Source: Pseudomonadota bacterium
GTDB taxonomy: Bacteria > Pseudomonadota > Gammaproteobacteria > JAKBBU01
Direction of reading: 5' to 3'
Length of the DNA stretch: 64,000 nucleotides
Assembly: GCA_021808365.1 (NCBI GenBank)
Contig: JAKBBU010000001.1
Span: 30,615 to 94,614, forward strand
Shown: positions 1 through 57,669 of the stretch, piece by piece
How positions within the stretch are numbered: position 1 is the first letter of the stretch
How the letters are laid out: each line of letters begins with the position of its first letter
The notes under the pieces: generated by a model
The model's input: the letters and a program-made list of their open reading frames with translations, nothing else
Database searches by the model: none
Told to the model about the DNA's origin: nothing
Translations under genes and position numbers: made by a program

Positions 1-1
1 T

Positions 2-166: not shown

Positions 167-553
167 CTCCCACTTTTTTGACGTGGGTGCTGATATTTTT
201 TCCTAAACCCCTTTTATTTTGTAGTAACTAGGCCTATAATGGACTCGTTGATCGACTATAAGGATTTGCGCTAGCTTTTTGGGACACCTCTTGAGGCGTT
301 TTAATAAGATCCAGGGCACTTTATAGACTTTCTTTTTCGTTGCTGCTTATCGTGCTGGAGAATTTCTACCTCGGTGTTTCAGACAAATTATGGTTGGACT
401 GCTCCTTGTGATCTGCGCTCTTTCTGTGGTTTGCTCTGTTCTGGTAGAGGTTTTTTAAGCCGAACGACCCAGGGCTGTCCTCTTACGTGAAGGCGTGGTG
501 TACATTCTAGATTGATGCGGTGACCTTGTTTGTTTTTTGGAGTACCTGGATTT

Positions 554-886: not shown

Positions 887-905
887 GCCTTAGCCTCTAT
901 ATGTG

Positions 906-945
906 AAACCCCTGTTTCGGCTTTGCTGGACCAGGGTTTTTTTTT
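906..945 (+). terminator. Rho-independent terminator after the RRM-protein gene
   Basis: The GC-rich hairpin aaacccctg...cagggttt is followed by a run of 9 T, 20 nt after the stop codon. Confidence 0.7.
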
Positions 946-974
946 GCCCGTCATCCTGGGGATTTAGTTTTTAT

Positions 975-1090
975 GTAGGTTGGGTTAGCGTACTTGCGTA
1001 ACCCAACAAAATTAAAGATGAAAAATATTGGATTTTATAGGCGGAATGTTGGGTTACGTCCAGCCTATCGGCTGTTCTAACCCAACCTAC
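975..1090. repeat. Family-A palindromic interspersed repeat, full two-module copy (GTAGGTTGGGTTAG...CGTAACCCAACA ... TGTTGGGTTACG...CTAACCCAACCTAC)
   Basis: Internal inverted repeats are visible. Near-identical modules recur at 7891-7932, 11394-11436, 13799-13908, 43143-43230, with partial copies at 28721-28745 and 50926-50943. Confidence 0.8.
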
Positions 1091-1102
1091 GCCTCCTAAA
1101 AC

Positions 1103-1178
1103 TGGCGCCCCGGACAGGATTCGAACCTGTGACCTATCCCTTAGGAGGGGATCGCGCTATCCCCTGTGCCACCGGGGC
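1103..1178 (-). tRNA. tRNA-Arg (anticodon CCT)
   Basis: The reverse complement reads GCCCCGGTGGCACAGGGGATAGCGCGATCCCCTCCTAAGGGATAGGTCACAGGTTCGAATCCTGTCCGGGGCGCCA. It has a cloverleaf with a GGTTCGAATCC T-arm, anticodon loop CTCCTAA and an encoded CCA. Confidence 0.85.
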
Positions 1179-1453
1179 AAAGTTTTTATAATCCTAAATT
1201 AAGATTAACTTATATTCATAATATATAATACATCGTCTAGAGATTTTGGTCTAGGGATACTTCATAAGAGTTTAATCCATTTTTAGACACAACAATAAAA
1301 AAGTTACTACCGTTGTGCATAAGATTAATTTGTATGAGTAAGTTCGAGTATGATATTTTTAAAGATAAAGTTCATGATGTCTTAGATAAAAAAAATAAAC
1401 TGAAAAAATAGATACTGGCTTAGTGTCCGTTTTTCAGGGGCAGATTAATTGAT

Positions 1454-2113
1454 TCAAAACTCAATCCAAGACTGCCACCCTGCCCTGATTTGTTGTGTGG
1501 TTAGGCATTCATCATCATTAAAGGAAGAAATCCTTTTTGAAAGACTGGATTCCCGCCTCTGCGGGAATGACGCTAAGGAAGAAATCTCTTGTATAAAACT
1601 AGATTTCTGCTGCTGGGACGCGACTGCATAAACTGCCTGAAGTCGAACCACACTACGCCTACTCGCGCTCATTGCAAAGATAGTGATTCGAAAAAAATCT
1701 AAATTTTGTGGCAATGACGACTCAGCATGCAAACACGGATCATGTTCGAACGGTTCAATCACAAAACGAACCTTGATCTTGCCCTGATCCAATGAACATC
1801 TACGACCTAATTTCAGCCACCAAACGACAGATCTATCACGCCAGACTTGAATGGGCTGCATAGCTTGATAGCAATTTGACTTCGTCTTCAACATTGATGC
1901 CACTTGATTTAAAGCATTTTCTGCAGCTCGAAAAACTTCATTTTTTTCATTAAACTGCCCTGCCATTTTAAGTTCCAAGGCGCTGGATATCGATGCCGTC
2001 ATGACAATGGATGTACTTAAAAATAAGAACAATAAGACAATGAATAGAATATTGCCGTGTATACTATTATTGATTAATAACGAAGAAGGCTGCACCAATG
2101 ACACAACACGCAT
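1454..2113 (-). CDS. Hypothetical minor-pilin-like protein (PilX-like), uncertain
   Basis: The ORF lies downstream of and overlaps the pilW-like gene. Its N-terminus is hydrophobic (NILFIVLLFLFLSTSIV) and resembles a pilin-like transmembrane segment. The C-terminal part reads through family-B repeat copy B1 (1545-1571). The start was chosen at the internal Met (MRVV...). Confidence 0.3.
   Translation of the reverse strand: MRVVSLVQPSSLLINNSIHGNILFIVLLFLFLSTSIVMTASISSALELKMAGQFNEKNEVFRAAENALNQVASMLKTKSNCYQAMQPIQVWRDRSVVWWLKLGRRCSLDQGKIKVRFVIEPFEHDPCLHAESSLPQNLDFFRITIFAMSASRRSVVRLQAVYAVASQQQKSSFIQEISSLASFPQRRESSLSKRISSFNDDECLTTQQIRAGWQSWIEF
1545..1571. repeat. Family-B palindromic repeat (CTGGATTCCCGCCTC[T/C]GCGGGAATGAC)
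   Basis: Same element as at 2302-2329 (inverted), 31584-31609, 47521-47557, 56256-56282 and 56531-56557. Confidence 0.8.
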
Positions 2114-2130
2114 TGGCGCAGCCTTCTTCG
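2081..2130. repeat. Family-D hairpin repeat (GAAGGCTGCACCAATG-ACACAACACG-CATTGGCGCAGCCTTC)
   Basis: Perfect inverted repeat with the core GCACCAATG..CACAACACGCATTGGTGC, shared with 18164-18239 and 38141-38224. It is flanked by a further palindrome, ttattgattaataa/ttattaataa. Confidence 0.7.
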
Positions 2131-2133
2131 TTA

Positions 2134-3276: not shown

Positions 3277-3313
3277 GATGGCTTAGTTTGTAAGCCTAAG
3301 AGGAAGATATAAA

Positions 3314-3658
3314 ATGGATAAACCCGAAATCAAAACCTGCCTAGCCTGTGAAGGCGGCGTTCTACCGCTCAAACGTGCTGAGATCAAAAAACACCTTGCT
3401 ACCGATTGCCCAGAATGGAAAGAAACTATTTATGGGAAAGAAATTGCCCGGGATTATCAGTTCAAGGATTATTATGAAACTATCGCCTTTGTAAATGCAG
3501 TGGCGGAGTTGTCGCATCGTGAAAACCATCATCCTGATTTAAAAGTCACTTATAATCATTGCATCGTTTCTTACAGTACCCATGCTGTGGATGCTCTGAC
3601 TGATAATGACTTTATTTGTGCGAAGTTTGTAGATGGGTTATATACTCGCGGCCAATGA
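3314..3658 (+). CDS. phhB: Pterin-4a-carbinolamine dehydratase
   Basis: 114 aa protein carrying the conserved E..HHPD and C..THA motifs typical of PCD/DCoH. An AGGA-containing ribosome-binding site lies upstream. phhA is found about 7 kb away in the same window. Confidence 0.8.
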   Translation: MDKPEIKTCLACEGGVLPLKRAEIKKHLATDCPEWKETIYGKEIARDYQFKDYYETIAFVNAVAELSHRENHHPDLKVTYNHCIVSYSTHAVDALTDNDFICAKFVDGLYTRGQ

Positions 3659-5937: not shown

Positions 5938-7845
5938 TTACTTTCTTGTAATTTTTATCTTCGCATGACTGACGGTGTCCAATGAATAGATGTCATAGTC
6001 CAAGGATCCCATGGCTTTTTCTAGTTGAGCTTGCAATGCCGGTGTAGGTACATCTTTAGGATCAGCAGGAACCAATCGAATCAATTGTAAAAGAACATTG
6101 TCTCCATCAGGCAATGCAAATGCAGCAGCCGATACCGGTATTTTTGTTGAGGGTGGAGGCAATGTGAACCCCTCATTTACGATCACTGTATTCACACCGG
6201 CTTTATTGCGTGAAGCATCCACCACATTATAAGCACTTAAGCCATTTTGTTTGGCTAACTGTGCTAAGGGCTGGCCTTTTTGAAGTTGAGTAAGCAATTG
6301 TTTCGCTAAAACTTGGGCTTTTCCACTTGCAGCCTCTTGCGTTAAATTAGAGCGGATCTGAGGTGCGACCTCTGTAAAGGGAAGCACAGCAGAAGGCTGA
6401 TGTTGTTTAACACGAAGGATCACCACTGTTTCGGGATCCAATTGAATCGAATCACTATTATTACCTTGAGCCAACACACTGTTATTAAATGCAGCGGAAT
6501 AAATTTTAGGGTTTGCTGCAATCCCATCTTTTGCACCACTGCGGCTAAATAGAGGCGTTGATTGGATTTGCAACCCAAGTGTTTTTGCAGCAATAGAAAG
6601 ATCCGTTGGATTTTCATAGGCTAAATTAGCAAGTTGATCGCTTTGGTCGGCAAAAAGGCTTTCCGCTTTTTGTCGGGCTAATAAAGTTGTAATTTTCGGA
6701 GTTGCTTGATTCAAGGGGATAATTTGTGAGGGTTTAACCGCCAACAATTTGATGATATCAAAGCCATATTGCGTCCGAATAGGTGCAGAAATCGGTGTTG
6801 TCATCGATAAACTTTGAACGGTTTCACCGAAAGTGCCCTTAAGCTGTCCTGCAGAAATCCACCCAATGCTACCGCCTTTTTTATTCGACAGTGTATCATC
6901 AGAGTCTTTCAACGCCAATTTAGAAAAGTCAGCACCTTGTTTAAGTTGTGCAGCGATTGTATTGACTTTAGTTTGTGCTGCGGCAATTTGAGCGGCAGTG
7001 GCATCTTTAGGGAGCTGTACGAGAATATGGGCAATGTCCTTTTGTTCAGGTAATGTAAACATGGAAAGATTATCTTGATAAAATTGTTTGATTTGTTCAT
7101 CGCTAGGATGAATGTTTTGAGTAAGTTGAGTCAGTGATAATTCGACATAATCAATACTAACTTGTTCTTTGCTTTTAAAAGCATCCATATGATTTTGGTA
7201 ATAAGTTTTTACAACATCATCGGGAATAGAAACAGATTTCACAAAACGGGATGCGGGCACAATGATATAAGAGAAATCACGTTTTTGATGCATGAGCGTA
7301 GAAGTGCTACTAAGTTCATTGGGTAACACAAAAGTGGTATTTGTATAGGCGGATTGTACTTGGCTGATCAACATGATGTTTTGAATATCGTGGATCAATT
7401 GCGTGGTTGTCATTTGTTGTGCGTTAAGGGCTTGGTCGAAACGTTCCTTTGAGAACTGGCCGTGTTCTTGAAAAGCAGGTACGGTTTCTATGACATAATT
7501 AATTTGGGTTTGGCCAACGCGGTAGCCTTGTTTTCGAGCTGCATCGCCGAGAGCTTGGGTGGAAATCATTTGTTTAAGTAGGGTTTCGCGCAAATAGTTG
7601 AGATAGCCGGGACTTTGTGGGAATTGATTACCCATTTGTGCTTGTTGTTGGTCGACAAGGCGCCGAAAAGCACGATTAAATTGAACTTGATTGATCACTT
7701 GGCCATTCACCTTAGCTACAACAGCGTTTTGGGCTGCAGTACCAAAGTAATTGTGAATTCCCCAGAGTGCGAAGGTGACGGAAATAACGATGACGATGAG
7801 CCAGGTCAGCCAGCCCTTGGAACGATCGTGAATGTTTTGTAACAT
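5938..7845 (-). CDS. ppiD: Periplasmic chaperone / peptidyl-prolyl isomerase PpiD
   Basis: The N-terminus MLQNIHDRSKGWLTWLIVIVISVTFALWG is a PpiD-type membrane anchor, followed by a SurA-like region and a parvulin-like region. The hupB - ppiD neighbourhood is conserved, as in E. coli. Confidence 0.8.
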   Translation of the reverse strand: MLQNIHDRSKGWLTWLIVIVISVTFALWGIHNYFGTAAQNAVVAKVNGQVINQVQFNRAFRRLVDQQQAQMGNQFPQSPGYLNYLRETLLKQMISTQALGDAARKQGYRVGQTQINYVIETVPAFQEHGQFSKERFDQALNAQQMTTTQLIHDIQNIMLISQVQSAYTNTTFVLPNELSSTSTLMHQKRDFSYIIVPASRFVKSVSIPDDVVKTYYQNHMDAFKSKEQVSIDYVELSLTQLTQNIHPSDEQIKQFYQDNLSMFTLPEQKDIAHILVQLPKDATAAQIAAAQTKVNTIAAQLKQGADFSKLALKDSDDTLSNKKGGSIGWISAGQLKGTFGETVQSLSMTTPISAPIRTQYGFDIIKLLAVKPSQIIPLNQATPKITTLLARQKAESLFADQSDQLANLAYENPTDLSIAAKTLGLQIQSTPLFSRSGAKDGIAANPKIYSAAFNNSVLAQGNNSDSIQLDPETVVILRVKQHQPSAVLPFTEVAPQIRSNLTQEAASGKAQVLAKQLLTQLQKGQPLAQLAKQNGLSAYNVVDASRNKAGVNTVIVNEGFTLPPPSTKIPVSAAAFALPDGDNVLLQLIRLVPADPKDVPTPALQAQLEKAMGSLDYDIYSLDTVSHAKIKITRK

Positions 7846-7890
7846 AAAACGTCCATCTCCGGTGTTATCCCGGGATTTAGATCAAAAAGC

Positions 7891-7932
7891 GTAGGTTGGG
7901 TTAACCCGGCCTAAGCCGGGCGTAACCCAACA
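7891..7932. repeat. Family-A repeat, single module (GTAGGTTGGGTTAACCCGGCCTAAGCCGGGCGTAACCCAACA)
   Basis: Perfect hairpin. It is preceded by a partial family-C motif (gttatcccgggatttag, 7864-7880) and lies 15 nt from the tRNA-Asp 3' end. Confidence 0.75.
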
Positions 7933-11236: not shown

Positions 11237-11393
11237 GTTTGGCCTTTTATCAGTGCTGTTTTCAAGCGGGCACAGGGGCCCGTCCTTACTTTGATATCAT
11301 CCCATCTTAAGTCTAGGCAAACAATACTAATTTGCGAACTTCCTGATGTAAGGGATGAAATGACATGCTAACATTGAGTTATCCTCTTTAGAA

Positions 11394-11436
11394 TGTTGGG
11401 TTACGTTCAGCCTTCGGCTGCGCTAACCCAACCTAC
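11394..11436. repeat. Family-A repeat, single module (TGTTGGGTTACGTTCAGCCTTCGGCTGCGCTAACCCAACCTAC)
   Basis: Hairpin located 18 nt upstream of the acyl-CoA dehydrogenase start codon. Confidence 0.75.
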
Positions 11437-11454
11437 GCCTTAAGGAACTTAAGC

Positions 11455-12606: not shown

Positions 12607-13794
12607 ATGAAAAATGATGCTAACGATATCGTCATCGTCGCGGCCACTCGTACCGCTATGGGTGGCTTATTGGGTGTTTTCAAAGACGTCACTGCAACAG
12701 CACTGGGCAGCCGAGCTATTGTTGGTGCGCTGGAGCAAACTTTTCTAAAACCCGAAGAGATGGATAGCGCCTTTTTGGGCTGTGTCTTACCTGCAGGCCT
12801 TGGACAAGCGCCTGCCCGGCAAGCGGCATTGGGCGCAAGTCTGCCCTACTCTACTTCAGCACTCACCGTGAATAAAATGTGTGGTTCAGGCATGGCTGCT
12901 GTGATGTTAGCTCACGATGCACTTCGGGTTGGAAGTGCCAACATAGCCATCGCGGGTGGGTTAGAAAGCATGACTCGCGCCCCTTATTTAATTCCCAAAG
13001 CACGTGGAGGATATCGGTTTGGCCATGCTCAAATATTTGATCATATGTTGCTCGATGGACTTGAAGATGCTTACGAAAAAGGCATTTCGATGGGTGTTTT
13101 TGCAGAACGTTGTGCCAGTGATTATGGTTTTTCACGCGAAGTTCAAGATGAGTTTGCTTTAAGATCGCTCATGCGTGCAAAAAAAGCAACGGATGATGGA
13201 ACATTTGCACGAGAAATCACGCCTTTTTTAATTCAATCCTCAGGGATAGAAACAAAAATTGATCAAGATGAAAATGTCTTGCGCGCACAGCCAGATAAAA
13301 TTCCACATCTAAAACCTGCCTTCAAACCCGATGGCACGATCACGGCGGCTAATTCAAGCTCGATTTCAGATGGCGCTGCGGCATTAATTTTGATGCGCCG
13401 GGGCGATGCGGAACAACGCCAACTTAAAATTTTAGCCCGCATTGTCGGCCATACGACGCATGGCGAAAAACCGGATAAATTTCCAATTGCACCCATTGGT
13501 GCGATCAAAAAATTGTATGAAAAAACAGGTTGGGATCCGAAAAGTGTCGATCTCTACGAAATTAATGAAGCATTTGCAGTGGTCACTTTGGCGGCAATGA
13601 ACGATCTTAAACTGGGTGCTGATCAAGTGAATATTCATGGCGGCGCTTGTGTACTGGGTCATCCCATTGGTGCTTCGGGTGCTCGTATTTTAGTCACTTT
13701 ATTGAACGCTCTTCATACGCACAAACTCAAACGCGGCATTGCAAGTTTGTGTATCGGCGGTGGTGAGGCGACGGCGATGGGGATTGAAATATAA
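12607..13794 (+). CDS. Acetyl-CoA C-acyltransferase (thiolase)
   Basis: Thiolase active-site Cys motif NKMCGSGM; C-terminal Cys in CIGGGEATAM. Translationally coupled to the upstream ACAD, whose stop overlaps this ATG. Confidence 0.85.
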   Translation: MKNDANDIVIVAATRTAMGGLLGVFKDVTATALGSRAIVGALEQTFLKPEEMDSAFLGCVLPAGLGQAPARQAALGASLPYSTSALTVNKMCGSGMAAVMLAHDALRVGSANIAIAGGLESMTRAPYLIPKARGGYRFGHAQIFDHMLLDGLEDAYEKGISMGVFAERCASDYGFSREVQDEFALRSLMRAKKATDDGTFAREITPFLIQSSGIETKIDQDENVLRAQPDKIPHLKPAFKPDGTITAANSSSISDGAAALILMRRGDAEQRQLKILARIVGHTTHGEKPDKFPIAPIGAIKKLYEKTGWDPKSVDLYEINEAFAVVTLAAMNDLKLGADQVNIHGGACVLGHPIGASGARILVTLLNALHTHKLKRGIASLCIGGGEATAMGIEI

Positions 13795-13798
13795 ACGT

Positions 13799-13908
13799 GT
13801 AGGTTGGGTTAGTGCAGCCGTTAGGCTGAGCGTAACCCAACAAAAACGCTGCAAAAGAAGGAAATGTTGGGTTACGTCCAGCCTAACGGCTGTTCTAACC
13901 CAACCTAC
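13799..13908. repeat. Family-A repeat, full two-module copy
   Basis: GTAGGTTGGGTTAGTGCAGCCGTTAGGCTGAGCGTAACCCAACA...TGTTGGGTTACGTCCAGCCTAACGGCTGTTCTAACCCAACCTAC. It starts 5 nt after the thiolase stop. Confidence 0.8.
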
Positions 13909-14017
13909 ATTTTTTGACAGTTCATCTAACCTCACAATCACTTCAGTAAATTTGCCATTGAATCTTTTGCATAATTCTGATAACTTCCAAAGGTTGTTAA
14001 CCATCGCCGGACTTTGT

Positions 14018-18163: not shown

Positions 18164-18239
18164 AGAGACTTCGTCACAAGGAAGAGTGCACCAATGCCAC
18201 AACACGCATTGGTGCACTCTTCCTTGTGACGAAGTCTCT
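18164..18239. repeat. Family-D hairpin repeat (AGAGACTTCGTCACAAGGAAGAGTGCACCAATGCCACAACACGCATTGGTGCACTCTTCCTTGTGACGAAGTCTCT)
   Basis: Perfect 33-bp-arm inverted repeat starting 13 nt after the RND gene stop. Same core as 2081-2130 and 38141-38224. Confidence 0.8.
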
Positions 18240-19277: not shown

Positions 19278-19289
19278 TAACGAACGTCC

Positions 19290-19356
19290 GTCATCCCGGA
19301 ATTTAGTCGTTCTTGCATGTACTCACGCTTAGAACGACTAAATTCCGGGATGACGG
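19290..19356. repeat. Family-C palindromic repeat (GTCATCCCGGAATTTAGTCGTTCT...AGAACGACTAAATTCCGGGATGAC)
   Basis: Long inverted repeat. A second full copy lies at 56146-56200. Partial copies are at 950-975, 7864-7880, 25801-25822 and 56286-56302, and a variant at 27313-27355. Confidence 0.8.
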
Positions 19357-29581: not shown

Positions 29582-31509
29582 CTCACCGTACCCGTTGAAG
29601 AGCCATCTTCTTGAACTTGATCTTTAGGTTGAGCAGGATCAACAGATGTTGGAGCAGCCGGCGGTGGTAATTCATCATCAATCCAATCTTTTGGAGGACG
29701 AGGCACTTTCCCTGACATGATTTCTCCAATTTGGAATTCATCGATGGTTTCATACTTCATTAAAGCATCTGCCATGAGATGTAATTTATCAATATTTTCC
29801 TTCAATAATTGCTCAGCACGTTTGTAATTGACTTCAATGATCCGCTTGACTTCTTCATCAATCAAATGAGCAGTATCTTCTGAGAATTCTTTGTGTTTAG
29901 TGACAGAATGCCCAAGGAAGACTTCGCCATCCTCTTCGCCAAACGAAAGTGGTCCGATGCGATCAGATAAACCCCACTTGGTCACCATTGCACGTGCAAT
30001 CTTCGTCGCGCGTTCAATATCATTTGAGGCACCTGTCGTGACATGTTGAGGTCCGAAAATAATAATTTCAGCTAAACGCCCACCAAACAGAGCGGAAATC
30101 TGACTTTCCAAACGTTGCAGGCTGTAACTATAACGATCATCTTCCGGTAAAAAGACGGTAACGCCCAAGGCACGGCCGCGGGGAATGATCGTCACTTTAT
30201 AAACAGGATCGTGTTCAGGCACTAAGCGACCTACGATGGCATGACCTGATTCATGATAAGCCGTTAATTTCTTTTCTTGCTCACTCATCACCATGGTTTT
30301 GCGTTCAACGCCCATGATGATTTTATCTTTGGCTTTTTCCATTTCCGCCATATTGACGGATTTTTTATTCGAGCGAGCTGCATAAAGCGCCGCTTCATTG
30401 ACTAAATTCGCGAGATCCGCACCTGAAAATCCAGGTGTCCCACGCGCAATGACGGATGGAACAACATCATCGCCCGCAGGAATTTTGCGTAAATGAACTT
30501 TAAGAATTTGCTCGCGACCACGAATATCAGGTAGCGACACGACGACTTGCCGATCGAACCGACCTGGGCGCAATAAAGCAGGATCCAGCACATCAGGACG
30601 ATTGGTTGCGGCGATAACGATCACGCCTTCTTTGCCTTCGAAGCCATCCATCTCAACGAGTAATTGATTTAACGTTTGTTCGCGTTCGTCATGTCCACCA
30701 CCAAGACCTGCGCCACGATGGCGACCTACAGCATCGATTTCATCAATAAAAATAATACAGGGTGCTTGTTTTTTTGCTTGTTCAAACATATCGCGTACAC
30801 GCGAAGCTCCGACACCGACAAACATTTCAACAAAGTCAGAACCTGAAATAGAAAAGAAGGGTACTTTTGCTTCGCCGGCAACCGCTTTTGCGAGTAAGGT
30901 TTTACCGGTTCCTGGTGGACCGACCATTAAAATGCCGCGCGGAATTTTGCCGCCTAAATTTTGAAATTTGCTCGGGTCGCGTAAAAAGTCGACTAATTCT
31001 TTAACTTCTTCCTTAGCTTCATCAACGCCCGCGACGTCAGCAAAGGTAACTTGAATTTGATCTTCACTCAATAAGCGCGCGCGACTTCGGCCAAACGACA
31101 TGGCGCCACCGCGCCCACCGCCGCCACTTTGCATTTGGCGCATGAAAAAAATCCAGACGCCGATGAGCAAGAGCATTGGGAACCAACTGACGAAGATGCG
31201 CATGAAGAGCCCGCTTTCTTCTTGGACTTTTCCGCTGACATTGACATTGTGTTTGAGGAGTTGGTTGAGGAGGAAGGGATCTTGCATAGGGATAACGGAG
31301 GAAATCACGCGATTGTTTTGAGTGACCGCCGTGATAGAGTCGTCCACAATTTCAGCTGAGGTGACGTTGCCTTGATCGACTTCTTGTAGGAATTGGCTAT
31401 AGCTGACTTTTTCAGAAGTATTGGCTTTGGAGCCGAAATTGCTGAAGACGAAAATAAGGACGAGGGCAATAATGGCCCATAGGAGAAGATTTTTAAGCAT
31501 GTCGTTCAA
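29578..31509 (-). CDS. ftsH: ATP-dependent zinc metalloprotease FtsH
   Basis: Walker A motif GPPGTGKT, the AAA second region of homology, and the zinc-binding HESGHA. The rlmE-ftsH-folP-glmM order is conserved. Confidence 0.95.
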
Positions 31510-31583
31510 GGAGGACCCCTTTTCTCAAGACAAAGTATTTTCTCAATTATACGCGTTATTGTTTGAAGATGCTAATTGCCGCC

Positions 31584-31609
31584 GTCATTCCCGCCTCCGC
31601 GGGAATGAC
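31584..31609. repeat. Family-B repeat core (GTCATTCCCGCCTCCGCGGGAATGAC) between ftsH and rlmE
   Basis: Perfect palindrome; this copy lacks the CTGGAT arm. Confidence 0.75.
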
Positions 31610-31639
31610 GGTCCTGTGGTGATCCGATAACAGGAAGAA

Positions 31640-38144: not shown

Positions 38145-38224
38145 TATTCATCAAGTACAAAGAAGACTGCACCAATGCGCGTTGTGGCATTGATGCAGTC
38201 TTCTTTGTACTTGATGAATATCAG
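38141..38224. repeat. Family-D hairpin repeat overlapping the mfd stop (CTGATATTCATCAAGTACAAAGAAGACTGCACCAATGCGCGTTGTGGCATTGATGCAGTCTTCTTTGTACTTGATGAATATCAG)
   Basis: Perfect 30-bp-arm inverted repeat with the same GCACCAATG core. Confidence 0.8.
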
Positions 38225-43142: not shown

Positions 43143-43230
43143 AGTAGGTTGGGTTAGAACAGCCGACAGGCTGAACGTAACCCAACAAGCTCTGCAAAAA
43201 ACAAAAATGTTGGGTTACGCACACCCTTCG
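43143..43230. repeat. Family-A repeat, full first module plus truncated second module
   Basis: GTAGGTTGGGTTAGAACAGCCGACAGGCTGAACGTAACCCAACA...TGTTGGGTTACGCACACCCTTCGGGC. It is followed at 43234-43266 by a separate perfect hairpin (GACGATTCTAAGTTGGCAACTTAGAATCGTC) overlapping the argH stop. Confidence 0.75.
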
Positions 43231-43243
43231 GGCTTTGACGATT

Positions 43244-44710
43244 CTAAGTTGGCAACTTAGAATCGTCAGAAATTGATGAAAAATGATCAGATAACTTAAA
43301 CTGTTCCGAAACCTTCTGCATCAATTGATGTTTCTCATCGATCCAAGCTTGTGTTTGCGAAATTTTCTCATGAAAAAAGGCAATCTCGTGATCGAGCTCG
43401 GCATCATGAGCATGTGCAATGGTCTCGAGCGAGAGCGCTTCATAAACGCTTTCATCAATGGCATTTGAAAATTCTCGCATTTGCGCAAGGCTTAATTCTT
43501 CAAGGGTACAATTTTTCTGCGTGCAGTGTGCAACCATCTTTCCAACGATTTCATGCGCAGTACGAAAGGCAACTTTCTTTTTGACGAGGTATTCGGCTAA
43601 TGCAGTTGCATTTAAAAAGCCTTTTTGTGTAGCGGTAAACATAGCTTGACGATTAATGGTTAAACTACTTAATAAGGGCGTATAAACAGTCAATACTGCC
43701 TGCAAGGTTTTTACCGTATCAAACAAGGGTTCTTTATCTTCTTGTAGATCACGATTATACGTTAAGGGTAATCCTTTCATTAATGTTAAAAGATTCATTA
43801 ATGATCCATAAACCCGCCCTGTTTTTCCACGCGTTAATTCTGCCACATCAGGATTTTTTTTCTGCGGCATCATGCTACTGCCTGTGCAAAACGCATCACC
43901 CATTTCAATGAAATTAAATTCTTGGCTGGACCAGAGAATTAATTCTTCACTCAAACGAGACAGATGCATCATGATGAGGCTTGCGATGGATAAAAATTCA
44001 ATCACAAAATCACGATCGCTGACTGCATCCATATTGTTTAAATATACAGCATTGAACTTTAGCAATGAAGCCACATCGTGTTTATCAATCCCAAAACTAC
44101 TGCCATTTAAGGCCCCTGCCCCTAATGGTGATTGATTGACACGCGACCAAGTAGATTGTAATCGTTCACTATCGCGTTGCAACATAGCCGCATAAGCTAG
44201 AAAATATTGAGAAAGAATGACTGGCTGAGCTCGTTGTAAATGCGTATAACCTGGCACAACTACGTCGCGGTGCGATTGTGCGAGTTGGACTAATTGTTCT
44301 TGTAATTGTAGCAATCGATCCAGGATATCTACAGTTTGGCGACGCAGATACAAATGTAAATCCAAGGCCACTTGATCATTGCGGCTGCGCGCAGTGTGCA
44401 GTTTTCCAGCAACGTCCCCTATTTCCGCATGAAGTAAACGCTCAATATTCATATGAATATCTTCATCTTCCATGCGAAATTGAAGCTTCCCTGCTTCTAT
44501 TTTTTGTGCAATTGTCGCTAAGCCATGTTGTAAAATTTGAGCATCGTGCTGATCTAAAATCTGGCGCTGACCCAACATCGCTGCATGCGCCATGCTGCCC
44601 AGGAGATCATCATAGGCGAGCGCCTGATCAACATGGATCGATGCTGTGAATTGCTCGACTTCAGGGTGTGTGCTCGCATTAAATCGACCTCCCCAGAGTT
44701 TTTTACTCAT
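43244..44710 (-). CDS. argH: Argininosuccinate lyase
   Basis: The fumarate-lyase signature [12 protein letters not shown] is present, and the N-terminus KLWGGRF is typical of ArgH. The start is placed at [10 protein letters not shown]; the six-frame ORF extends further upstream into argG. Confidence 0.85.
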
Positions 44711-47520: not shown

Positions 47521-47557
47521 ACTGGATTCCCGCCTCCGCGGGAATGACAGGCCGTTG
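47521..47557. repeat. Family-B palindromic repeat between argR and yajQ
   Basis: CTGGATTCCCGCCTCCGCGGGAATGAC. Confidence 0.8.
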
Positions 47558-50904: not shown

Positions 50905-50964
50905 TGCTATACTTCAAAAAGGCTGCGCTAACCCAACCTACGTCCTTATGAAAGAGCAAGCTTC

Positions 50965-53529: not shown

Positions 53530-54575
53530 TAGGTATCCCTTCGAAAAATCATTCGGCCCTGAGCCATGAAACTGATGATGAATAAAAAAGCATCGGCCAT
53601 GATTTTTGCAGGGATCACGCTGATCCCAAGTCCTTGGTTCAATAATTTAATCAATAAATAAGAGGAAAGCATAATCCCTACAGCTAATATGCCATATCGT
53701 TTGAGTTCTCGCCCAAGTTTTGATCGGTGTGCTTTATAAACAAGATATTTATTGTTATAAAAATTAAACAGACTTGAAATAATGCGCGCGATGACGACGC
53801 TGCTGATTAAATTAGCGCCAGAATAATGGCAAAGTGAAAAAATACTTAAATCGATTAAAAACGAAAGAAAAGAGATGATGATAAATCGAAGAAATACAAA
53901 GTAAACACGAAACGAATCGAGAATGGGATTAAAATGTGAAGATCGATTATCATCAATGTAGACCGTTGAAATGGTGATTTGTTGAACATTAATTGCTTGA
54001 TCAGCTAAATACATTAAACATTCCAATTCAAAATCATAGCGATTCGAGTGAAATTCAACAAAGGCGCTTAATAAAGCTTTGGGGATAGCGCGTAACCCTG
54101 TTTGTGTATCGCTGACTTCTCGTTTGTAAATTTTTTTAAACAGCCAGCGTGTGAGTTCATTACCGAACTTACTGCGCGCGGGTGTTTTTCCACTAAATTC
54201 ACGGACACCCAAAATAAAATGATTTGGATTTTTTTCAAGGGCTTGTGCCAATCGAATGACGTCTTGAACCAGGTGTTGGCCGTCGGCATCGAGGGTGACG
54301 ACACCAAGACAATCGGGGGCGTGTTCGAGAAGGTAATGAAATCCTGTTTTGAGGGCAGCACCCTTGCCTTGGTTATGGTCATGGTTCAATACGGTAACAT
54401 TGGGTAGTTTTGCACAGGCTTCAAAAAGAGGTTGCATTTTTTCATCCGAACCGTCGTTGATGATCAGGGTAGGATATTCTGCCGTGGGTAAGTGGGTGAT
54501 GAGGGTGAGTAGTTGCTCATCGGGGTTATAGGCCGGGATGAGTAGATAAACTTTGGAAGGAAGTTTATTGTTCAT
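53529..54575 (-). CDS. Family-2 glycosyltransferase (polyprenyl-phosphate sugar transferase-like) fused to a GtrA-like membrane domain
   Basis: N-terminal GT-A fold (VYLLIPAYNPDEQ, DAD in VTLDADGQH). The C-terminal 120 aa has four transmembrane helices typical of GtrA-family proteins. Confidence 0.7.
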   Translation of the reverse strand: MNNKLPSKVYLLIPAYNPDEQLLTLITHLPTAEYPTLIINDGSDEKMQPLFEACAKLPNVTVLNHDHNQGKGAALKTGFHYLLEHAPDCLGVVTLDADGQHLVQDVIRLAQALEKNPNHFILGVREFSGKTPARSKFGNELTRWLFKKIYKREVSDTQTGLRAIPKALLSAFVEFHSNRYDFELECLMYLADQAINVQQITISTVYIDDNRSSHFNPILDSFRVYFVFLRFIIISFLSFLIDLSIFSLCHYSGANLISSVVIARIISSLFNFYNNKYLVYKAHRSKLGRELKRYGILAVGIMLSSYLLIKLLNQGLGISVIPAKIMADAFLFIISFMAQGRMIFRRDT

Positions 54576-55180
54576 GTGGACTCATTGGCCTCTTCTTCGT
54601 CACAAAAATCGTAGAAGTGTTGTTCCGTCACTACACCATCGAGGAATACATCGTGTTTGTGTGTCAAAATTTCGTCAACCTTTTGAAGTTCATAGGCTAG
54701 CCCGAGTAGGTAGGGCTTTGTTTTTTTTGCCTGTGTAAGTTTAAACGAAAATGCGCGATCATAGTAGCCTGCGCCGCGTCCTAAGCGAGCACCTTTGTGG
54801 TCAAAGGCGACAAGAGGAACGAGGACGAGATCGAGTTCAGCGGCTGGGATAGCCTGTATATGTGCTTGGGGCTCGAGGATGCCATGAGCATTGGGGTGCA
54901 AGGACTGATTTTCGGTGTAGTGTTGGAAGATGAGCGTGGGTGGTTCTGCGTATTGAATTTTAGGTAGATAGAGTGTTTTACTCATTGCCCAGGCGAGTTT
55001 GATGAGTTCACTGGGGTCGACTTCTCCGTCTTGGGCATGGTAGACGGCGATGCTGTGGCTGGCTTTGAAGGTGTTTTGTTGGGCGATAGTGGTCGCGATG
55101 GCTTGGGCGGCTTTTTCTTGGAGGTTTTTGGGAATTGCTTTGCGTGCATTGCGAAGTGTTTGTCGTAGGTCTTTGGACAT
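54572..55180 (-). CDS. ygfA: 5-formyltetrahydrofolate cyclo-ligase
   Basis: MTHFS-family motifs (…LDLVLVPLVAFDHKGARLGRGAGYYDR). The start is chosen at MSKD, which gives good ribosome-binding-site spacing (AAGG, 8 nt). It lies divergent to ygfB-pepP-ubiH, as in E. coli. Confidence 0.75.
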   Translation of the reverse strand: MSKDLRQTLRNARKAIPKNLQEKAAQAIATTIAQQNTFKASHSIAVYHAQDGEVDPSELIKLAWAMSKTLYLPKIQYAEPPTLIFQHYTENQSLHPNAHGILEPQAHIQAIPAAELDLVLVPLVAFDHKGARLGRGAGYYDRAFSFKLTQAKKTKPYLLGLAYELQKVDEILTHKHDVFLDGVVTEQHFYDFCDEEEANEST

Positions 55181-55194
55181 TGTCATTGCCTTAG

Positions 55195-55380
55195 AAACAA
55201 AAACCCCGCCATATCGTGACAAGCTTCATTCTGAACCCGGGAGTCCAGGTGGGGCAGATGCGGGATGTATCAGGCGTTCTACTCAAGGCAGACATGCACA
55301 ACAACTCCCTAAATTTTAGCCCCTTATCGTTACTTATAGGTCCAAAGAACGATCACTTATTCGTAAACACAGCGGGATTA
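55195..55380 (-). ncRNA. ssrS: Candidate 6S RNA (ssrS) in the 5' leader of ygfA. This is a hypothesis from synteny, not a sequence match.
   Basis: A 320-bp ORF-free region lies upstream of ygfA, which in E. coli and many gammaproteobacteria is co-transcribed with ssrS. A minus-strand promoter-like site is present (TTGTAA, 16-nt spacer, TATACT, with -10 at plus 55386-55391). The termini of the candidate can pair (5' AAUCCCGC with 3' GCGGGGUU). Confidence 0.3.
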
Positions 55381-55465
55381 GTTACAGTATAACAAATTTA
55401 TTCTTAATTACAATTTTAAGGCGTTGTCATTCTTGACAGCTTTTTTGCTAAATGAGTGTGAAAAG

Positions 55466-55474
55466 TGGTATAAT
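55466..55474 (+). promoter_or_regulatory. Extended -10 promoter element (TGgTATAAT) for ygfB
   Basis: TGGTATAAT lies 27 nt upstream of the ygfB ATG. A strong GGGGG ribosome-binding site sits at 55492-55496. Confidence 0.35.
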
Positions 55475-55500
55475 GCCTCATTGGCCTTCTAGGGGGAAAT

Positions 55501-56097
55501 ATGCAAGCACAACGGACACTCAATTTCAATGATATAGGCTCTGCCATTGGCCAAAAACGTATTTTTTCAGGCCCTTCTTATGCCCACGGTTGGCTCTGTG
55601 GCATGATTTGTGCGGGCAATAAAATGAATGGTTCATCTTGGGCGGAATTACTCCTGGGCATCGATGATCACAGCAATCTTAAAGCTCTAGAAAGCCGCCA
55701 ACTCTTGTTGGATCTTCACCGTGCTAGCTGTGAGCAATTACATAATTTTTCATTTGAGTTTCAAGTCCTTCTTCCTGATGATGAGAGCGACCTCATGACC
55801 CGTGCAACCTCACTCAGTGAGTGGTGCGAGGGTTTTCTTGAGAGTCTGGCTCTTGCAGGCATTGGACTCGGCACCGGCCAATTGAAGGAATGTCAAGATG
55901 TGTTGCGTGATTTTACTGAAATTGCAGCTCTTGATTATGACCAAATTAAGGCATCTAAATCTGATCAAGAGTCATTCGAGCAAGTTGTTGAATATGTCCG
56001 GATGGCCGTTCTGTTGATTTACACTGTTATGACTACGAAACAAAATCGTTCACGTCGTTTTTCACCGGAATCAATCACGGAAGATTATTTGCATTAG
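55501..56097 (+). CDS. ygfB: UPF0149/YgfB-family protein
   Basis: 198 aa, acidic, with the YgfB/YecA N-domain. Its position upstream of pepP-ubiH-ubiI matches the E. coli ygfB-pepP-ubiH-visC cluster. Confidence 0.7.
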   Translation: MQAQRTLNFNDIGSAIGQKRIFSGPSYAHGWLCGMICAGNKMNGSSWAELLLGIDDHSNLKALESRQLLLDLHRASCEQLHNFSFEFQVLLPDDESDLMTRATSLSEWCEGFLESLALAGIGLGTGQLKECQDVLRDFTEIAALDYDQIKASKSDQESFEQVVEYVRMAVLLIYTVMTTKQNRSRRFSPESITEDYLH

Positions 56098-56145
56098 CCT
56101 CGATGTCATTCTCGCGGAGTATAATGTAGTATATCGTCATCCCGG

Positions 56146-56200
56146 GATTTAGTCGTTCTTCGCGCGTACTCGCGCGTTAGAACGACTTAATACCCGGGAT
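56146..56200. repeat. Family-C palindromic repeat (GTCATCCCGGGATTTAGTCGTTCTTCGCGCGTACTCGCGCGTTAGAACGACTTAATACCCGGGAT)
   Basis: Second full copy of the 19290-19356 element. It sits in a mosaic with a partial family-B copy (56105-56120), family-B copy B5 (56256-56282) and a partial family-C copy (56286-56302). Confidence 0.8.
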
Positions 56201-56255
56201 CCAGGAAATAAAAAAAGGATTTTTTCACCAAAAGAAAAAATCCCTTTTTATAAGA

Positions 56256-56282
56256 CTGGATTCCCGCCTCCGCGGGAATGAC
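56256..56282. repeat. Family-B palindromic repeat, about 45 nt upstream of pepP
   Basis: CTGGATTCCCGCCTCCGCGGGAATGAC. Confidence 0.8.
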
Positions 56283-56326
56283 GAGTGTTATAAATCCCGG
56301 GATGACGACATGGCGCAGGGGCTACC

Positions 56327-57667
56327 ATGAAACCCATCATCACCACCGAAGAATACACACAGCGTCGTCGTCGCTTGCTCGATGCAATGGGCCATTCAAT
56401 TGCAATTATTAAAAATGATCCCGAACGCGTTCGAAATGGCGATGGCCATTATCCCTACCGTTCAAACAGTTCATTTTATTATCTCACCGGATTTTCTGAA
56501 CCCGAGGCTATTTTAGTTCTTATTAGAAGACTGGATTCCCGCCTCCGCGGGAATGACGTTGGGGAATCTATACTTTTCGTTCGGCCACGTTGTCCCGCTG
56601 AAGAACAATGGACGGGTCTACGCGCAGGAACTGAAGGCGCGGTTCAAGATTATCAAGTTGATCAAGCTTTTCCTCTTGATGAATTTGATACACGTTTACC
56701 TGAATTATTGAGCAATCAAACCCGTTTAATGTATCAATTTGGGCGTGACCCACAGTGGGATGCGCGCATATTAAATGCTTTAAATGCAGCCCGTCGTTTT
56801 ATTCGCCAAGGTAAACACGTGCCGGATCAAATCCTGTCCATCGACACGCTGCTCGATGAAATGCGATTAATTAAAAGCCCCTCTGAAATTCAAATGATGC
56901 GATACATTGCCGATCACTCTGCTAAAGCCCATGTTCGCGCCATGAAGCATTGCCGCCCTGCCCTCAATGAATATCATTTAGCAGCTGAAATTCATCATGA
57001 ATTAGCGCTTGAGGGATCGCATGAAACAGCCTATCCATCTATTGTGGGCAGTGGTGCGAATGCCTGTATTCTTCATTACACCGATAATAAAGCTATTTTG
57101 CGCGACGGCGATTTAGTGTTGATCGACGCTGGCGGTGAATATGGAAATTATAGTGCAGATATTACACGAACATTTCCGATCAATGGAACCTTTAATCCAC
57201 AGCAAAAAGCTCTGTACAATCTTGTGTTAAAGGCACAAATGGCTGCGATTGAATTAATTAAACCTGGATTAATATGGTCGGCGATTCAAGAAACGATCGT
57301 AAAAGTGTTCACAAAAGGTCTTATTGAATTAGGGATTTTAAATGGTAAGTTTGATGATTTAATTCACAAACAAGCTTATTTGCCCTTCTACATGCACTCA
57401 AGTGGGCATTGGTTGGGGCTTGATACGCATGATGTCGGTTCTTATCGCAAAGCTGATGGACAATGGCGTCCTTTAGAAGCTGGCATGGTGTTGACGGTTG
57501 AACCTGGCTTGTATATTTCGCCCGATGCTGAAAATATTGATCCGATCTGGAAAGGGATAGCCATTCGCATTGAAGATGATATTCTCGTCACAAGTTCGGG
57601 TCATGAAGTATTAAGCCAAGCGGCACCGAAAACGGTGAAAGAAATCGAAGCGTTGATGCAAGGTTAG
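56327..57667 (+). CDS. pepP: Xaa-Pro aminopeptidase
   Basis: N-terminal creatinase-like domain plus M24 pita-bread domain with the metal ligands DAGGEYGNYSADITRT, HxxGHWLGLDTHD and EPG. A 27-nt family-B repeat lies in frame at codons 69-77. Confidence 0.85.
   Translation: MKPIITTEEYTQRRRRLLDAMGHSIAIIKNDPERVRNGDGHYPYRSNSSFYYLTGFSEPEAILVLIRRLDSRLRGNDVGESILFVRPRCPAEEQWTGLRAGTEGAVQDYQVDQAFPLDEFDTRLPELLSNQTRLMYQFGRDPQWDARILNALNAARRFIRQGKHVPDQILSIDTLLDEMRLIKSPSEIQMMRYIADHSAKAHVRAMKHCRPALNEYHLAAEIHHELALEGSHETAYPSIVGSGANACILHYTDNKAILRDGDLVLIDAGGEYGNYSADITRTFPINGTFNPQQKALYNLVLKAQMAAIELIKPGLIWSAIQETIVKVFTKGLIELGILNGKFDDLIHKQAYLPFYMHSSGHWLGLDTHDVGSYRKADGQWRPLEAGMVLTVEPGLYISPDAENIDPIWKGIAIRIEDDILVTSSGHEVLSQAAPKTVKEIEALMQG
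56531..56557. repeat. Family-B palindromic repeat inserted in frame inside pepP
   Basis: CTGGATTCCCGCCTCCGCGGGAATGAC is identical to the intergenic copies at 47521 and 56256. Here it encodes RLDSRLRGND in a surface-loop position, where E. coli PepP has a shorter loop. Confidence 0.85.
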
Positions 57668-57669
57668 TT

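Follow-up and report, generated by a model that had tools for sequence, protein, structure and literature searches.

A probable CGTC-1 palindrome carried in frame by the pepP gene of an uncultured Legionellales-like bacterium

The pepP gene, which encodes an Xaa-Pro aminopeptidase, occupies positions 56327–57667 (+) of the 64-kb stretch of DNA analysed here (the window). It is an uninterrupted open reading frame (ORF) of 446 aa with AMP_N and Peptidase_M24 domains. Within it, at 56531–56557 (+), lies a 27-nucleotide palindromic repeat, CTGGATTCCCGCCTCCGCGGGAATGAC, made up of the stem ATTCCCGC/GCGGGAAT, the loop CTCC, the tail CTGG and the tag GACG. The repeat encodes L69–D77 and, with the preceding arginine, reads R68-LDSRLRGND77. 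The frame is kept, no stop is introduced and the ORF is intact, which confirms the reading in an earlier note on this DNA of an in-frame repeat contributing RLDSRLRGND.

Two further exact copies are present, both intergenic and on the + strand: one at 47522–47548, between the convergent genes argR and yajQ (DUF520), and one at 56256–56282, between a UPF0149 gene and pepP, in the same orientation as the pepP copy. The identity of both to the pepP copy had been claimed before and was borne out, but the interval then given for the first (47521–47557) is corrected here. Over 32 of 32 nucleotides (AAGA, the 27-mer and G; 56527–56558 versus 56252–56283), the pepP copy matches the one lying 275 bp upstream, and outside AAGA and G their flanks are not homologous. 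Directly upstream of the 56256 copy is an A/T-rich, bidirectional terminator-like hairpin (56217–56243), the 3′ arm of which (GAAAAAATCCCTTTTT) resembles a 'left arm' that accompanies two of the near copies, 1545 and 2302. Near copies are found at 1545–1571 (+, one mismatch), 2302–2328 (−, two mismatches) and 31583–31609 (+, three mismatches); the last is a fuller palindrome with a symmetric 13-bp stem (31582–31611), located between ftsH and rlmE. These six exact and near matches in 64 kb compare with 0.00 expected from 100 shuffles. Half of them (3/6) overlap coding sequences (CDSs), and the other three, all intergenic, are flanked by genes that converge or run in the same direction. All six are singlets; the nearest copies on opposite strands are 757 bp apart, and there is no inverted pair.

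The repeat coincides with an enlarged loop in PepP. When the query is aligned with 119 homologues by MAFFT, none of them (0/119) carries the extra segment, and seven extra columns are filled by the query only; the suggestion that the segment is a lineage-specific insertion thus agrees with the alignment. Alignment by phmmer to the solved PepP proteins of Pseudomonas aeruginosa and Yersinia pestis places gaps of seven and six residues, respectively, at the repeat site, and at the codon level pepP has 12 codons where its closest relative has 5. The net gain is therefore 7 residues (21 nt), as against a repeat-identical block of 32 nt: either the insertion removed some host codons or the loop was originally shorter. 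An AlphaFold (AF2) model of PepP has a mean pLDDT of 94.1, with only the block 71–80 dropping to 68. In this model, the nine encoded residues form the loop (69–77) of a β-hairpin in the N-terminal domain, between strands 62–68 and 78–85, and the model and the phmmer gaps agree with the loop position between N-domain strands that had been proposed. The model superposes on solved PepP structures with TM-scores of 0.93–0.95, and the catalytic and metal-binding positions (H250, D267, D278, H357, H361, H368, E392 and E416) are invariant. As judged from the model, the PepP fold and catalytic residues are left intact by the loop insertion. A close pepP orthologue with an empty site was not found in the databases searched, the 90% protein cluster of PepP has a single member and the nearest homologue among 5.8 billion proteins is 59% identical. 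Because of this distance, the insertion in pepP is deduced from its absence in distant homologues together with the identity of the repeat.

The sequence derives from a metagenome-assembled genome (MAG), and short repeats can mislead assemblers. A mis-assembly might have joined the repeat into pepP, or an ancestral PepP sequence might resemble the repeat by coincidence. Four other contigs, drawn from two more ENA assemblies and two MAGs at NCBI, are 99.98–100% identical to the window over their overlaps. Only one of these, L243, reaches the repeat part of pepP, and it carries the same copy, as does L001, which comes from a fifth assembly. Two independent assemblies covering the site thus agree, and the other three match the window wherever they overlap it. 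Moreover, the pepP ORF is intact and its predicted fold is that of PepP, and an ancestral origin is excluded by the 32-nt identity to other copies and the absence of the segment from 119 homologues. The artefact or coincidence reading is effectively refuted.

For two sister copies, empty sites are available for comparison. The copy at 2302–2328 is the core of a 51-nt (17-codon) in-frame insertion (2299–2349, −) in a pilW-like ORF (2134–3276); the insertion consists of the left arm GAAGAAATCCCTTTTAAAAGA and the core, and encodes EEIPFKRLDSHLRRNDV. The copy at 1545–1571, again preceded by a left arm, belongs to a 61-nt insertion (1513–1573, +) in the 3′ tail of a pilX-like CDS. This CDS is on the − strand, so the copy is read antisense, as SFPQRRESS. 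An 84%-identical relative, L242 from ERZ25039529, has empty sites for both insertions and, as 61 is not a multiple of 3, the pilX-like C-terminal tail is in a different frame from that in L242. The absence of two genic copies from L242 indicates that the family has recently been mobile in this lineage. At the pilX site, the inserted block is flanked by a 13-nt arm-like direct repeat (TAAGGAAGAAATC); at the pilW site, no repeat flanks the insertion and there is no target-site duplication relative to the empty site. PilW protein homologues were too divergent (37% identity) to prove the pilW insertion, which was settled at the DNA level with L242. In all, three window copies have an additional A/T-rich left arm, which is about 22 nt long.

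The earlier note had placed all three near copies within open frames. This holds for the 2302 copy, which lies in a real gene and is read in the same frame as the pepP copy, but not for the other two: the frame around the 1545 copy (1449..1631, 60 aa) and that around the 31583 copy (31421..31630, 69 aa) are short, spurious ORFs, the former copy being antisense in the pilX-like 3′ tail and the latter intergenic between ftsH and rlmE. We also considered miniature inverted-repeat elements (MITEs), which are 70–300 bp in length, with terminal inverted repeats derived from insertion sequences and a target-site duplication. This identity was rejected: the unit here is 27–61 nt, there is no duplication at the pilW empty site and the 13-nt repeat at pilX is ambiguous.

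Repetitive extragenic palindromes (REPs) are small non-coding, non-autonomous hairpin repeats. We conclude that the 27-mer is very probably a single unit of the CGTC-1 REP family (dRS3 in Neisseria, RPE-6 in Rickettsia conorii) that was added to pepP as a tolerated passenger. The family is defined by a CGTC tag, an 8-bp AT-initiated stem, a 4-nt loop and a CCA tail, and the paper describing it treats dRS3 of Neisseria and RPE-6 of R. conorii as the same family (Di Nocera, De Gregorio & Rocco 2013, BMC Genomics 14:522; PMC3733652). In the window, five copies carry GGGAATGACG on the + strand, which is CGTCATTCCC on the − strand, and the sixth (47522) has GACA, that is, TGTC, which the definition allows. 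The stem is 8 bp long and AT-initiated and encloses the 4-nt loop CTCC. The + strand CTGG, or CCAG on the tagged strand, fits the CCA tail in five of six copies. The copies are interspersed, with intergenic members between convergent or co-directional genes; the family as a whole is found mainly between unidirectional or convergent genes. Head-to-head dimers, which are typical of CGTC-1 without strictly defining it, are absent from the window; among 333 copies in other genomes, 24 adjacent pairs are inverted and 26 direct. The Neisseria REP seed ATTCCCGCGCAGGCGGGAATC (a 21-mer) is identical to the window repeat at 20 of 21 positions, with the sole difference in the loop, and the RS3-IN primer matches at 21 of 22. 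Six-frame translation of loop variants yields the published intragenic peptides DSRLRGND, VIPAKAGI, WIPAFAGMT, RHSRESGNP and SFPRKRES. The RPE-6 identity follows from the published equivalence and the matching peptides, with no Rickettsia DNA compared directly. A search of Rfam gave no family covering the repeat.

The repeat is therefore not new, and the pepP case is a further instance of a published family already known inside genes. In-frame CGTC-1 copies encoding, for example, DSRLRGND, VIPAKAGI, WIPAFAGMT and SFPRKRES have been tabulated in Rickettsia, Sphingomonas, Coxiella and other species, the hosts including S. wittichii, S. alaskensis, E. litoralis, H. neapolitanus, M. aeruginosavorus, C. 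chlorochromatii and C. burnetii; DSRLRGND occurs in R. conorii hemA and GSRLRGND in C. burnetii FeoB (PMC3733652). Contrary to the earlier note, which called such in-frame colonization rarely described outside Rickettsiales, the same peptides are thus found in frame in several species outside that order. We found further in-frame copies in Patescibacteria and in viral contigs, among them one within the exonuclease domain of PolA from a Patescibacteria MAG, one within a GT2 domain and one in a Wzy_C protein. The exact 27-mer spans more than ten phyla, in isolates as well as MAGs; Patescibacteria, Planctomycetota, Chloroflexota, Cloacimonadota and Omnitrophota are among them.

The note had further proposed that the element is constrained to stay open in at least one frame. 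No such constraint is needed, because five of the six frames of the 27-mer are stop-free by composition, and all five are used in published intragenic copies (PMC3733652). This bears on the interpretation from which the proposal came, that of a selfish element similar to Rickettsia palindromic elements (RPEs), adapted to coding regions, with its frame kept open by selection and creating new, possibly functional peptides. The pepP and pilW-like copies do share a frame and an orientation, giving RLDS(R/H)LR(G/R)ND, and half of the window copies overlap CDSs. However, two copies would share one of five usable frames by chance about one time in five, the copy in the pilX-like CDS is read antisense, giving SFPQRRESS, and in low-GC loci only about 6–7 of 110 copies lie within long ORFs. 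Furthermore, the PepP loop has the lowest confidence in the model, with no sign of a new fold. We consider adaptation to coding regions decidedly unlikely.

How might the copy have reached pepP? On the comparisons above, one CGTC-1 copy was added to the gene in this lineage, lengthening the β-hairpin loop by a net seven residues. Selection would purge most insertions into genes and spare those that keep the frame, are read in a stop-free frame, of which there are five, and lie where a loop or tail can accommodate them; the pepP copy would be such a tolerated passenger. The element itself was presumably copied in trans, the activity being encoded at another locus. For this the best candidate is an HUH/Y1 (RAYT-type) transposase that works on the hairpin in single-stranded form, as has been proposed for the near-identical Neisseria 21-mer (Bertels & Rainey, bioRxiv 10.1101/2021.07.10.451892). 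We place this step at somewhat short of an even chance, because no linkage to any transposase was found. Using phmmer with E. coli RayT, and then with 21 RAYT/TIRYT sequences (PMC3733652 Additional file 5), we searched the 9,545 ORFs of the window and of 240 loci that carry the repeat, without a hit; the positive control gave the expected match. The window and 15 kb of extra flank, about 79 kb of this genome in all, lack a RAYT/Y1 transposase, and no RAYT or other transposase lies near the 333 copies in the 240 loci. All-against-all BLASTP clustering of neighbouring genes returned as recurrent only phage structural genes and TspB and Zot of the Neisseria Nf prophage. Reciprocally, 80 RAYT loci from JGI metagenomes contained only GTAG-tagged hairpins and no CGTC-1 core. 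Di Nocera et al. (2013, PMC3733652) likewise describe no transposase association for CGTC REPs, in conflict with Bertels & Rainey. The window has no REPIN, that is, no two inverted REPs within about 130 bp; a REPIN–RAYT system also has a cognate RAYT gene in the genome, usually with the REP beside it.

This lack of a transposase in the loci searched would suit a different origin, in which local templated repair, gene conversion or template switching off the copy 275 bp upstream, rather than transposition, gave rise to the pepP copy. The two copies share 32 of 32 nucleotides, orientation and proximity, and the 13-nt direct repeat flanking the pilX block is suggestive of a microhomology-guided event. 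By contrast, the flanks of the two copies differ beyond AAGA and G, the pilW insertion has no flanking repeat, and an identical copy is also found at 47522, 9 kb off, which shows that copies need not be close. Local copying is, in our view, unlikely.

The hairpin might also have been kept in pepP for an RNA or DNA role, as a pause or processing site in a pepP–ubiH–ubiI-like transcript or a site for a host protein, with the peptide as a by-product. The 8-bp GC-rich hairpin is stable as RNA (−14.1 kcal/mol, z about −3), and REPs are generally regarded as RNA or DNA elements downstream of genes. However, it matches no Rfam family and has no counterpart in any pepP orthologue, and the intergenic copies occupy ordinary REP positions, so no special genic role is needed. 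We regard such a role as highly improbable, and retain the tolerated passenger as the preferred reading.

That REP hairpins are tolerated within coding sequences is already documented. The pepP case provides a clean example, structurally mapped on a model, in a housekeeping enzyme of an uncultured Legionellales-like bacterium, backed by empty-site comparisons for the pilW-like and pilX-like copies. Annotators should recognize a REP behind the peptides LDSR(L/F)RGND, VIPA.AGIQ, WIPA.AGMT, RHSR..GNP and SFPR.RES. What copies CGTC-type REPs, and why their sequence is so uniform across phyla, are questions that have stood since 2013. A broader reading, which we think improbable, is that CGTC-1 is a near-universal bacterial palindrome that is still inserting without a link to RAYT or any other recurrent transposase. 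If true, it would imply an unrecognized mechanism of mobilization or generation, or else a host factor, conserved universally, that holds the sequence constant, and in-frame colonization of genes, as in pepP, would continue to supply bacterial proteins in general with loop insertions.

Like other CGTC-1 REPs, the repeat is interspersed and mostly downstream of genes, with occasional in-frame intragenic copies encoding the same peptides; neither the host, an uncultured Legionellales-like gammaproteobacterium, nor the target, pepP, is in the published list (PMC3733652). It departs from typical CGTC-1 in that the window copies are singlets, whereas head-to-head dimers are said to predominate (PMC3733652), and in the left arm of about 22 nt on three copies. 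With Neisseria dRS3/RS3, which Bertels & Rainey regard as the REPIN population of a Group 2 RAYT, it shares the core ATTCCC-N8-GGGAAT (bioRxiv 10.1101/2021.07.10.451892). In Neisseria, however, dRS3 forms large clusters (NIMEs) and inverted pairs and serves as the Nf prophage attachment site, whereas here the copies are single and no RAYT was found in about 79 kb or near the 333 copies.

The comparison with RPEs made in the earlier note is closer than an analogy, as RPE-6, dRS3 and hairpins of the kind seen in the window are placed together in the CGTC-1 family (PMC3733652). RPEs, too, are palindromic repeats that have entered housekeeping genes without shifting the frame and are tolerated within loops (Ogata et al. 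2000/2002, as cited in PMC3733652). The pepP loop (69–77), as modelled, has the permissive in-frame surface position that characterizes them, and the pilW-like gene likewise has an in-frame insertion, of 17 codons. The classic RPE-1 is larger, at 100–150 bp and 30–50 added residues, compared with 27–51 nt and 7–17 residues here; the present host also lies outside Rickettsiales. The QMITE1 and QMITE2 elements of Coxiella burnetii, from a related order, are small non-autonomous repeats that overlap ORF ends and alter C-termini, as does the pilX-like copy (Wachter et al. 2018; PMC5896051). Unlike the window repeat, they are at least 150 bp long with terminal inverted repeats and direct repeats, and QMITE2 carries a GTAG REP rather than a CGTC REP (PMC5896051). 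Finally, enterobacterial RU/ERIC-type sequences are also small palindromic repeats with open frames that occur within genes (Delihas 2007; PMC2759123), but they belong to unrelated sequence families of 100–170 bp (PMC2759123).

The repeat inside pepP is very probably a non-autonomous repetitive extragenic palindrome (REP) of the CGTC-1 family that inserted in frame and is tolerated there. The pepP ORF (56327..57667, 446 aa, with AMP_N and Peptidase_M24 domains) matches solved PepP structures with E values of 1e-115 to 1e-142, and its copy of the 27-mer CTGGATTCCCGCCTCCGCGGGAATGAC, at 56531-56557, is translated as R68-L-D-S-R-L-R-G-N-D77. In a MAFFT alignment with the 119 best homologues, the query, and 0 of the 119, fills seven additional columns located between LVLI and G-x-x-x-GE, bearing out the earlier note's proposal of a lineage-specific addition; HMMER alignments leave 7- and 6-residue gaps at the repeat site in P. 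aeruginosa and Y. pestis PepP, respectively. At the codon level, 12 codons in the window (AGA AGA CTG ... GAC GTT) face 5 in the nearest relative, L002 (CCC GGT CGC AAA GAA). In the protein collection searched, no orthologue is closer than L002 (59% identity), which leaves no true empty-site pepP allele for comparison. The net gain is 21 nt, compared with a repeat-identical block of 32 nt, indicating either the loss of a few codons from the host gene or a shorter ancestral loop. In L002, around pepP codons 66-70, the hairpin loop I-P-G-R is encoded by ATT CCC GGT CGC, which matches the REP stem ATTCCCGC at 7 of 8 bases in a different frame, a post hoc match possibly due to chance. The match might hint at the conserved PG-R loop codons offering a REP-like target.

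An AlphaFold2 model of PepP, built with 42 homologues (mean pLDDT 94.1), puts residues 69-77 in a loop between two strands, 62-68 and 78-85, in agreement with the suggestion, made from the DNA alone, that the repeat falls in a loop between N-domain strands. The loop of this β-hairpin is predicted to consist of exactly the nine residues that the 27-mer encodes, and block 71-80 is the lowest-confidence stretch of the model (pLDDT 68). TM-scores against P. aeruginosa, Y. pestis and E. coli PepP are 0.93-0.95. The homologue alignment shows no variation at H250, D267, D278, H357, H361, H368, E392 and E416; by offset, the first seven presumably correspond to E. coli His243, Asp260, Asp271, His350, His354, His361 and Glu383, mutated in a PDB series, and E416 presumably to E. 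coli Glu406. Because the residues at catalytic positions are invariant and the predicted fold is that of solved PepP, the protein with its insert looks functional.

The pepP copy is present and unchanged in contigs of ERZ27237230 and ERZ27237103, and across their overlaps the contigs of ERZ27233573, GCA_027437435.1 and GCA_027326615.1 share 99.98-100% identity with the window; these agreeing contigs from further assemblies rule out an assembly artefact. Window 54572-60013 holds 6S RNA (ssrS, 55199-55381, minus strand), 5-formyl-THF cyclo-ligase, UPF0149 (ygfB-like), pepP and two ubiH/ubiI-like genes, an order syntenic with E. coli ssrS-ygfA / ygfB-pepP-ubiH-ubiI that supports pepP orthology. 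The host is an uncultured Legionellales-like gammaproteobacterium, its best named PepP matches being from Legionella (53-55% identity). A 592-aa ankyrin-repeat protein is encoded at 60519-62297 (plus strand; in GCA_027437435.1, L244 10774-12553, a 1-nt indel breaks it into ORFs of 274 aa and 326 aa) and a Ser/Thr-kinase-like gene lies right past the window's right end; such eukaryote-like proteins are consistent with a host-associated lifestyle.

The 27-mer has six matches in the window and none in dinucleotide-preserving shuffles. Three are exact: 47522-47548, between the convergent genes argR and yajQ; 56256-56282, upstream of pepP and adjoining a terminator-like hairpin; and the copy internal to pepP. 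The diverged copies lie at 1545-1571 (plus strand, antisense within the pilX-like gene tail), 2302-2328 (minus strand, internal to the pilW-like gene) and 31583-31609 (between ftsH and rlmE). Three of the six are intergenic, all at ordinary REP positions, and the two gene-internal copies, in pepP and the pilW-like gene, are read in the same frame. The open frames seen in the earlier note at copies 1545 and 31583 are spurious, being short plus-strand ORFs. When the six copies are aligned with their flanks, conservation ends with a core of 27-28 nt, except for an A/T-rich 'left arm' (AAGRAGAAATCCYTTTTNAAAGA) common to copies 1545, 2302 and 56256. The 27-mer forms a stable hairpin as RNA or DNA (about -14 kcal/mol). 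Over 32 nt, the pepP copy is identical to the copy 275 bp upstream; we regard local templated repair from that neighbouring copy as an improbable copying step.

Other repeats are also present. The 229-bp spacer 5′ of pepP combines at least three repeat types in a mosaic that resembles Neisseria NIMEs. It includes a larger composite palindrome with a CGTC tag at its start (CGTCATCCCGGGATTTAGTCGTTCTTCGCGCG...; 56135-56206, and again at 19289-19351), which is 93-94% identical to a copy at an unrelated locus, 6297-6540, on the contig of a relative (L242) and is thus another mobile repeat. GTAG-tagged REPs (GTAGGTTGGGTTA...TAACCCAAC) occur at 1045-1101, 7872-7925, 11391-11447, 13780-13919, 43144-43251 and 50921-50952, frequently as inverted pairs and in several cases adjoining tRNA genes; they represent the other REP superfamily, the kind used as IS1111 target in Coxiella.

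Family 1 of the CGTC-tagged REPs is defined by a CGTC tag that stays unpaired, a stem of 8 bp beginning with AT, a loop of 4 nt and the tail CCA (PMC3733652). The minus-strand sequence of the window element is CGTC-ATTCCCGC-GGAG-GCGGGAAT-CCA-G, with all of these features, and the element is a member of this described family, which Di Nocera et al. 2013 equate with Neisseria dRS3 and R. conorii RPE-6 (PMC3733652). It differs from the Neisseria 21-mer at a single loop base. Related published sequences come from Neisseria, namely the RS3 primers (CATTCCCGCGCAGGCGGGAATC) and the REP/REPIN seed ATTCCCGCGCAGGCGGGAATC, which N. meningitidis carries in 241 copies and which is assigned to a Group 2 RAYT (10.1101/2021.07.10.451892), and from Francisella, as an FtrB probe that includes GATTCCCGCCTACGCGGGAATGAC. 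Intragenic CGTC-1 copies encode DSRLRGND in 5-aminolevulinate synthase and DSRFCRND in an aminopeptidase of R. conorii, and GSRLRGND in FeoB and VIPACAGMT in a fimT-like pilin of C. burnetii; many further genes, from Rickettsia, Sphingomonas, Erythrobacter, Halothiobacillus, Micavibrio and Chlorobium, contain copies that encode VIPAKAGI, WIPAFAGMT, CHSRESGNP and SFPRKRES (PMC3733652, Additional file 3). In-frame colonisation, which the earlier note called rarely described outside Rickettsiales, is thus already described for this family, including in Coxiella. Six-frame translation of the consensus with common loops gives exactly the published peptides. Five of the six frames are stop-free from composition alone, the remaining one stopping at TGA in AATGAC; openness is therefore a by-product of composition and no evidence of selection on the element, contrary to the supposed constraint to stay open. 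A MITE was rejected, as the element is too short, lacks IS-type terminal repeats and has no clear target duplication; the Coxiella QMITEs, of at least 150 bp and in QMITE2 with a GTAG REP, are unrelated (PMC5896051). New here are the host, pepP as target, the structural mapping and the empty-site evidence.

That evidence comes from L242, a contig from another sample. It lacks any CGTC-1 core, and its synteny with the window covers 1-3527, where nucleotide identity is 82-84%. Global alignment reveals two blocks missing from it. The first, 51 nt (17 codons) at 2299-2349 in the pilW-like gene, comprises left arm and core, encodes EEIPFKRLDSHLRRNDV and has no target duplication. The second, 61 nt at 1513-1573 at the pilX-like 3′ end, has TAAGGAAGAAATC-like sequence on either flank and, 61 not being a multiple of 3, puts the C-terminal tail in another frame. 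The mobile unit can thus be about 50 nt (arm and core), and the family has moved since the two genomes diverged. The 61-nt insertion is bracketed on both sides by TAA(A)GGAAGAAATC (window 1513-1586 versus L242), and the ancestral L242 site already held TAAGGACGAAATCCC, similar to the element's own left arm; target preference, duplication or microhomology-guided copying may be involved.

PilW-like homologues are too distant to reveal the insertion by themselves. The REP-encoded segment replaces the region that holds the W..V.SV motif in other PilW proteins. The pilW-like ORF (2134-3276, minus strand) has two prepilin-type N-terminal segments, GFSLIEILIALLIFS (residues 17-31) and KSLLEVLIALTLG (71-83), as does relative P0122, and resembles an in-frame fusion of a truncated PilV-like leader to PilW. 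The stop codon of the pilW-like gene is provided by a 52-nt palindrome of unrelated sequence, inserted at 2080-2131 where pilW meets pilX and absent from L242. This belongs to a second palindromic family (ACRAAGAAGNCTGCACCAATG...CATTGGTGCAGNCTTCTTYGT), found also at 38157-38208 and 18164-18239, the latter a perfect 76-nt palindrome with a 34-bp stem. At L242 1996-2612, a PIN/PhdYeFM toxin-antitoxin pair, missing from the matching window place, lies between the pilX-like and RRM-protein genes.

At least 118 stretches of species-representative genomes contain the exact 27-mer. Among the matches listed (loci L123-L240), it spans, CTCC loop included, more than ten phyla, in isolates (Ramlibacter, Azohydromonas, Silvimonas, Zobellella and Pseudomonas) and MAGs (Patescibacteria/CPR, Planctomycetota, Chloroflexota, Cloacimonadota, Omnitrophota, Bdellovibrionota, Desulfobacterota and others), a spread far exceeding the five phyla reported for CGTC REPs in 2013 (PMC3733652). 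A loop-degenerate pattern is found in more than 120 contigs of viral or prophage origin (loci L003-L122 among them). The 333 copies listed have unrelated flanks, CTGC, CTTC, TTTC, CTCC and CTAC as their commonest loops, and adjacent pairs both inverted and direct. In loci with GC below 0.5, 7 of 110 copies lie within ORFs extending at least 60 codons on either side; of these ORFs, a 167-aa one (L078) looks spurious, and Pfam confirms three, namely the DNA polymerase I of a Patescibacteria genome, a glycosyltransferase-2 domain and a Wzy_C membrane protein. In the polymerase (L137, a Patescibacteria MAG), CGTC-1 is in frame (SFPRRRESS) within the 3′-5′ exonuclease domain, and a second unit, a degenerate one, follows about 25 residues later; PolA is a recurrent REP target according to the 2013 paper (PMC3733652). 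In viral contig L104, it is in frame inside the GT2 domain, where it encodes VIPAQAGIQ, twice in one 836-aa protein.

No Y1/HUH transposase was found in the window plus 15 kb of additional flank (Pfam on called genes, phmmer), and 21 RAYT/TIRYT queries matched none of 9,545 ORFs around the 333 copies (240 loci listed). When the same ORFs were clustered, the recurrent neighbours were all structural proteins of phages or belonged to the filamentous prophage of Neisseria, known to integrate at dRS3. The CGTC-1 core was absent from 80 RAYT-encoding metagenome loci (250 kb), whose perfect flanking hairpins carry GTAG tags. A single-copy RAYT elsewhere in the genome may act in trans, and we give RAYT-type single-strand transposition somewhat less than an even chance of being the copying step; the probability left over after this and local repair goes to no particular mechanism. 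The transposase absence agrees with Table 1 of Di Nocera et al., where CGTC REPs stand without transposase-gene association (PMC3733652), and fits uneasily with the Neisseria RAYT assignment (10.1101/2021.07.10.451892). The breadth of the exact sequence across phyla, together with the lack of a linked transposase, is the sole aspect that may lead somewhere new, and it extends a question already raised in the 2013 paper (PMC3733652).
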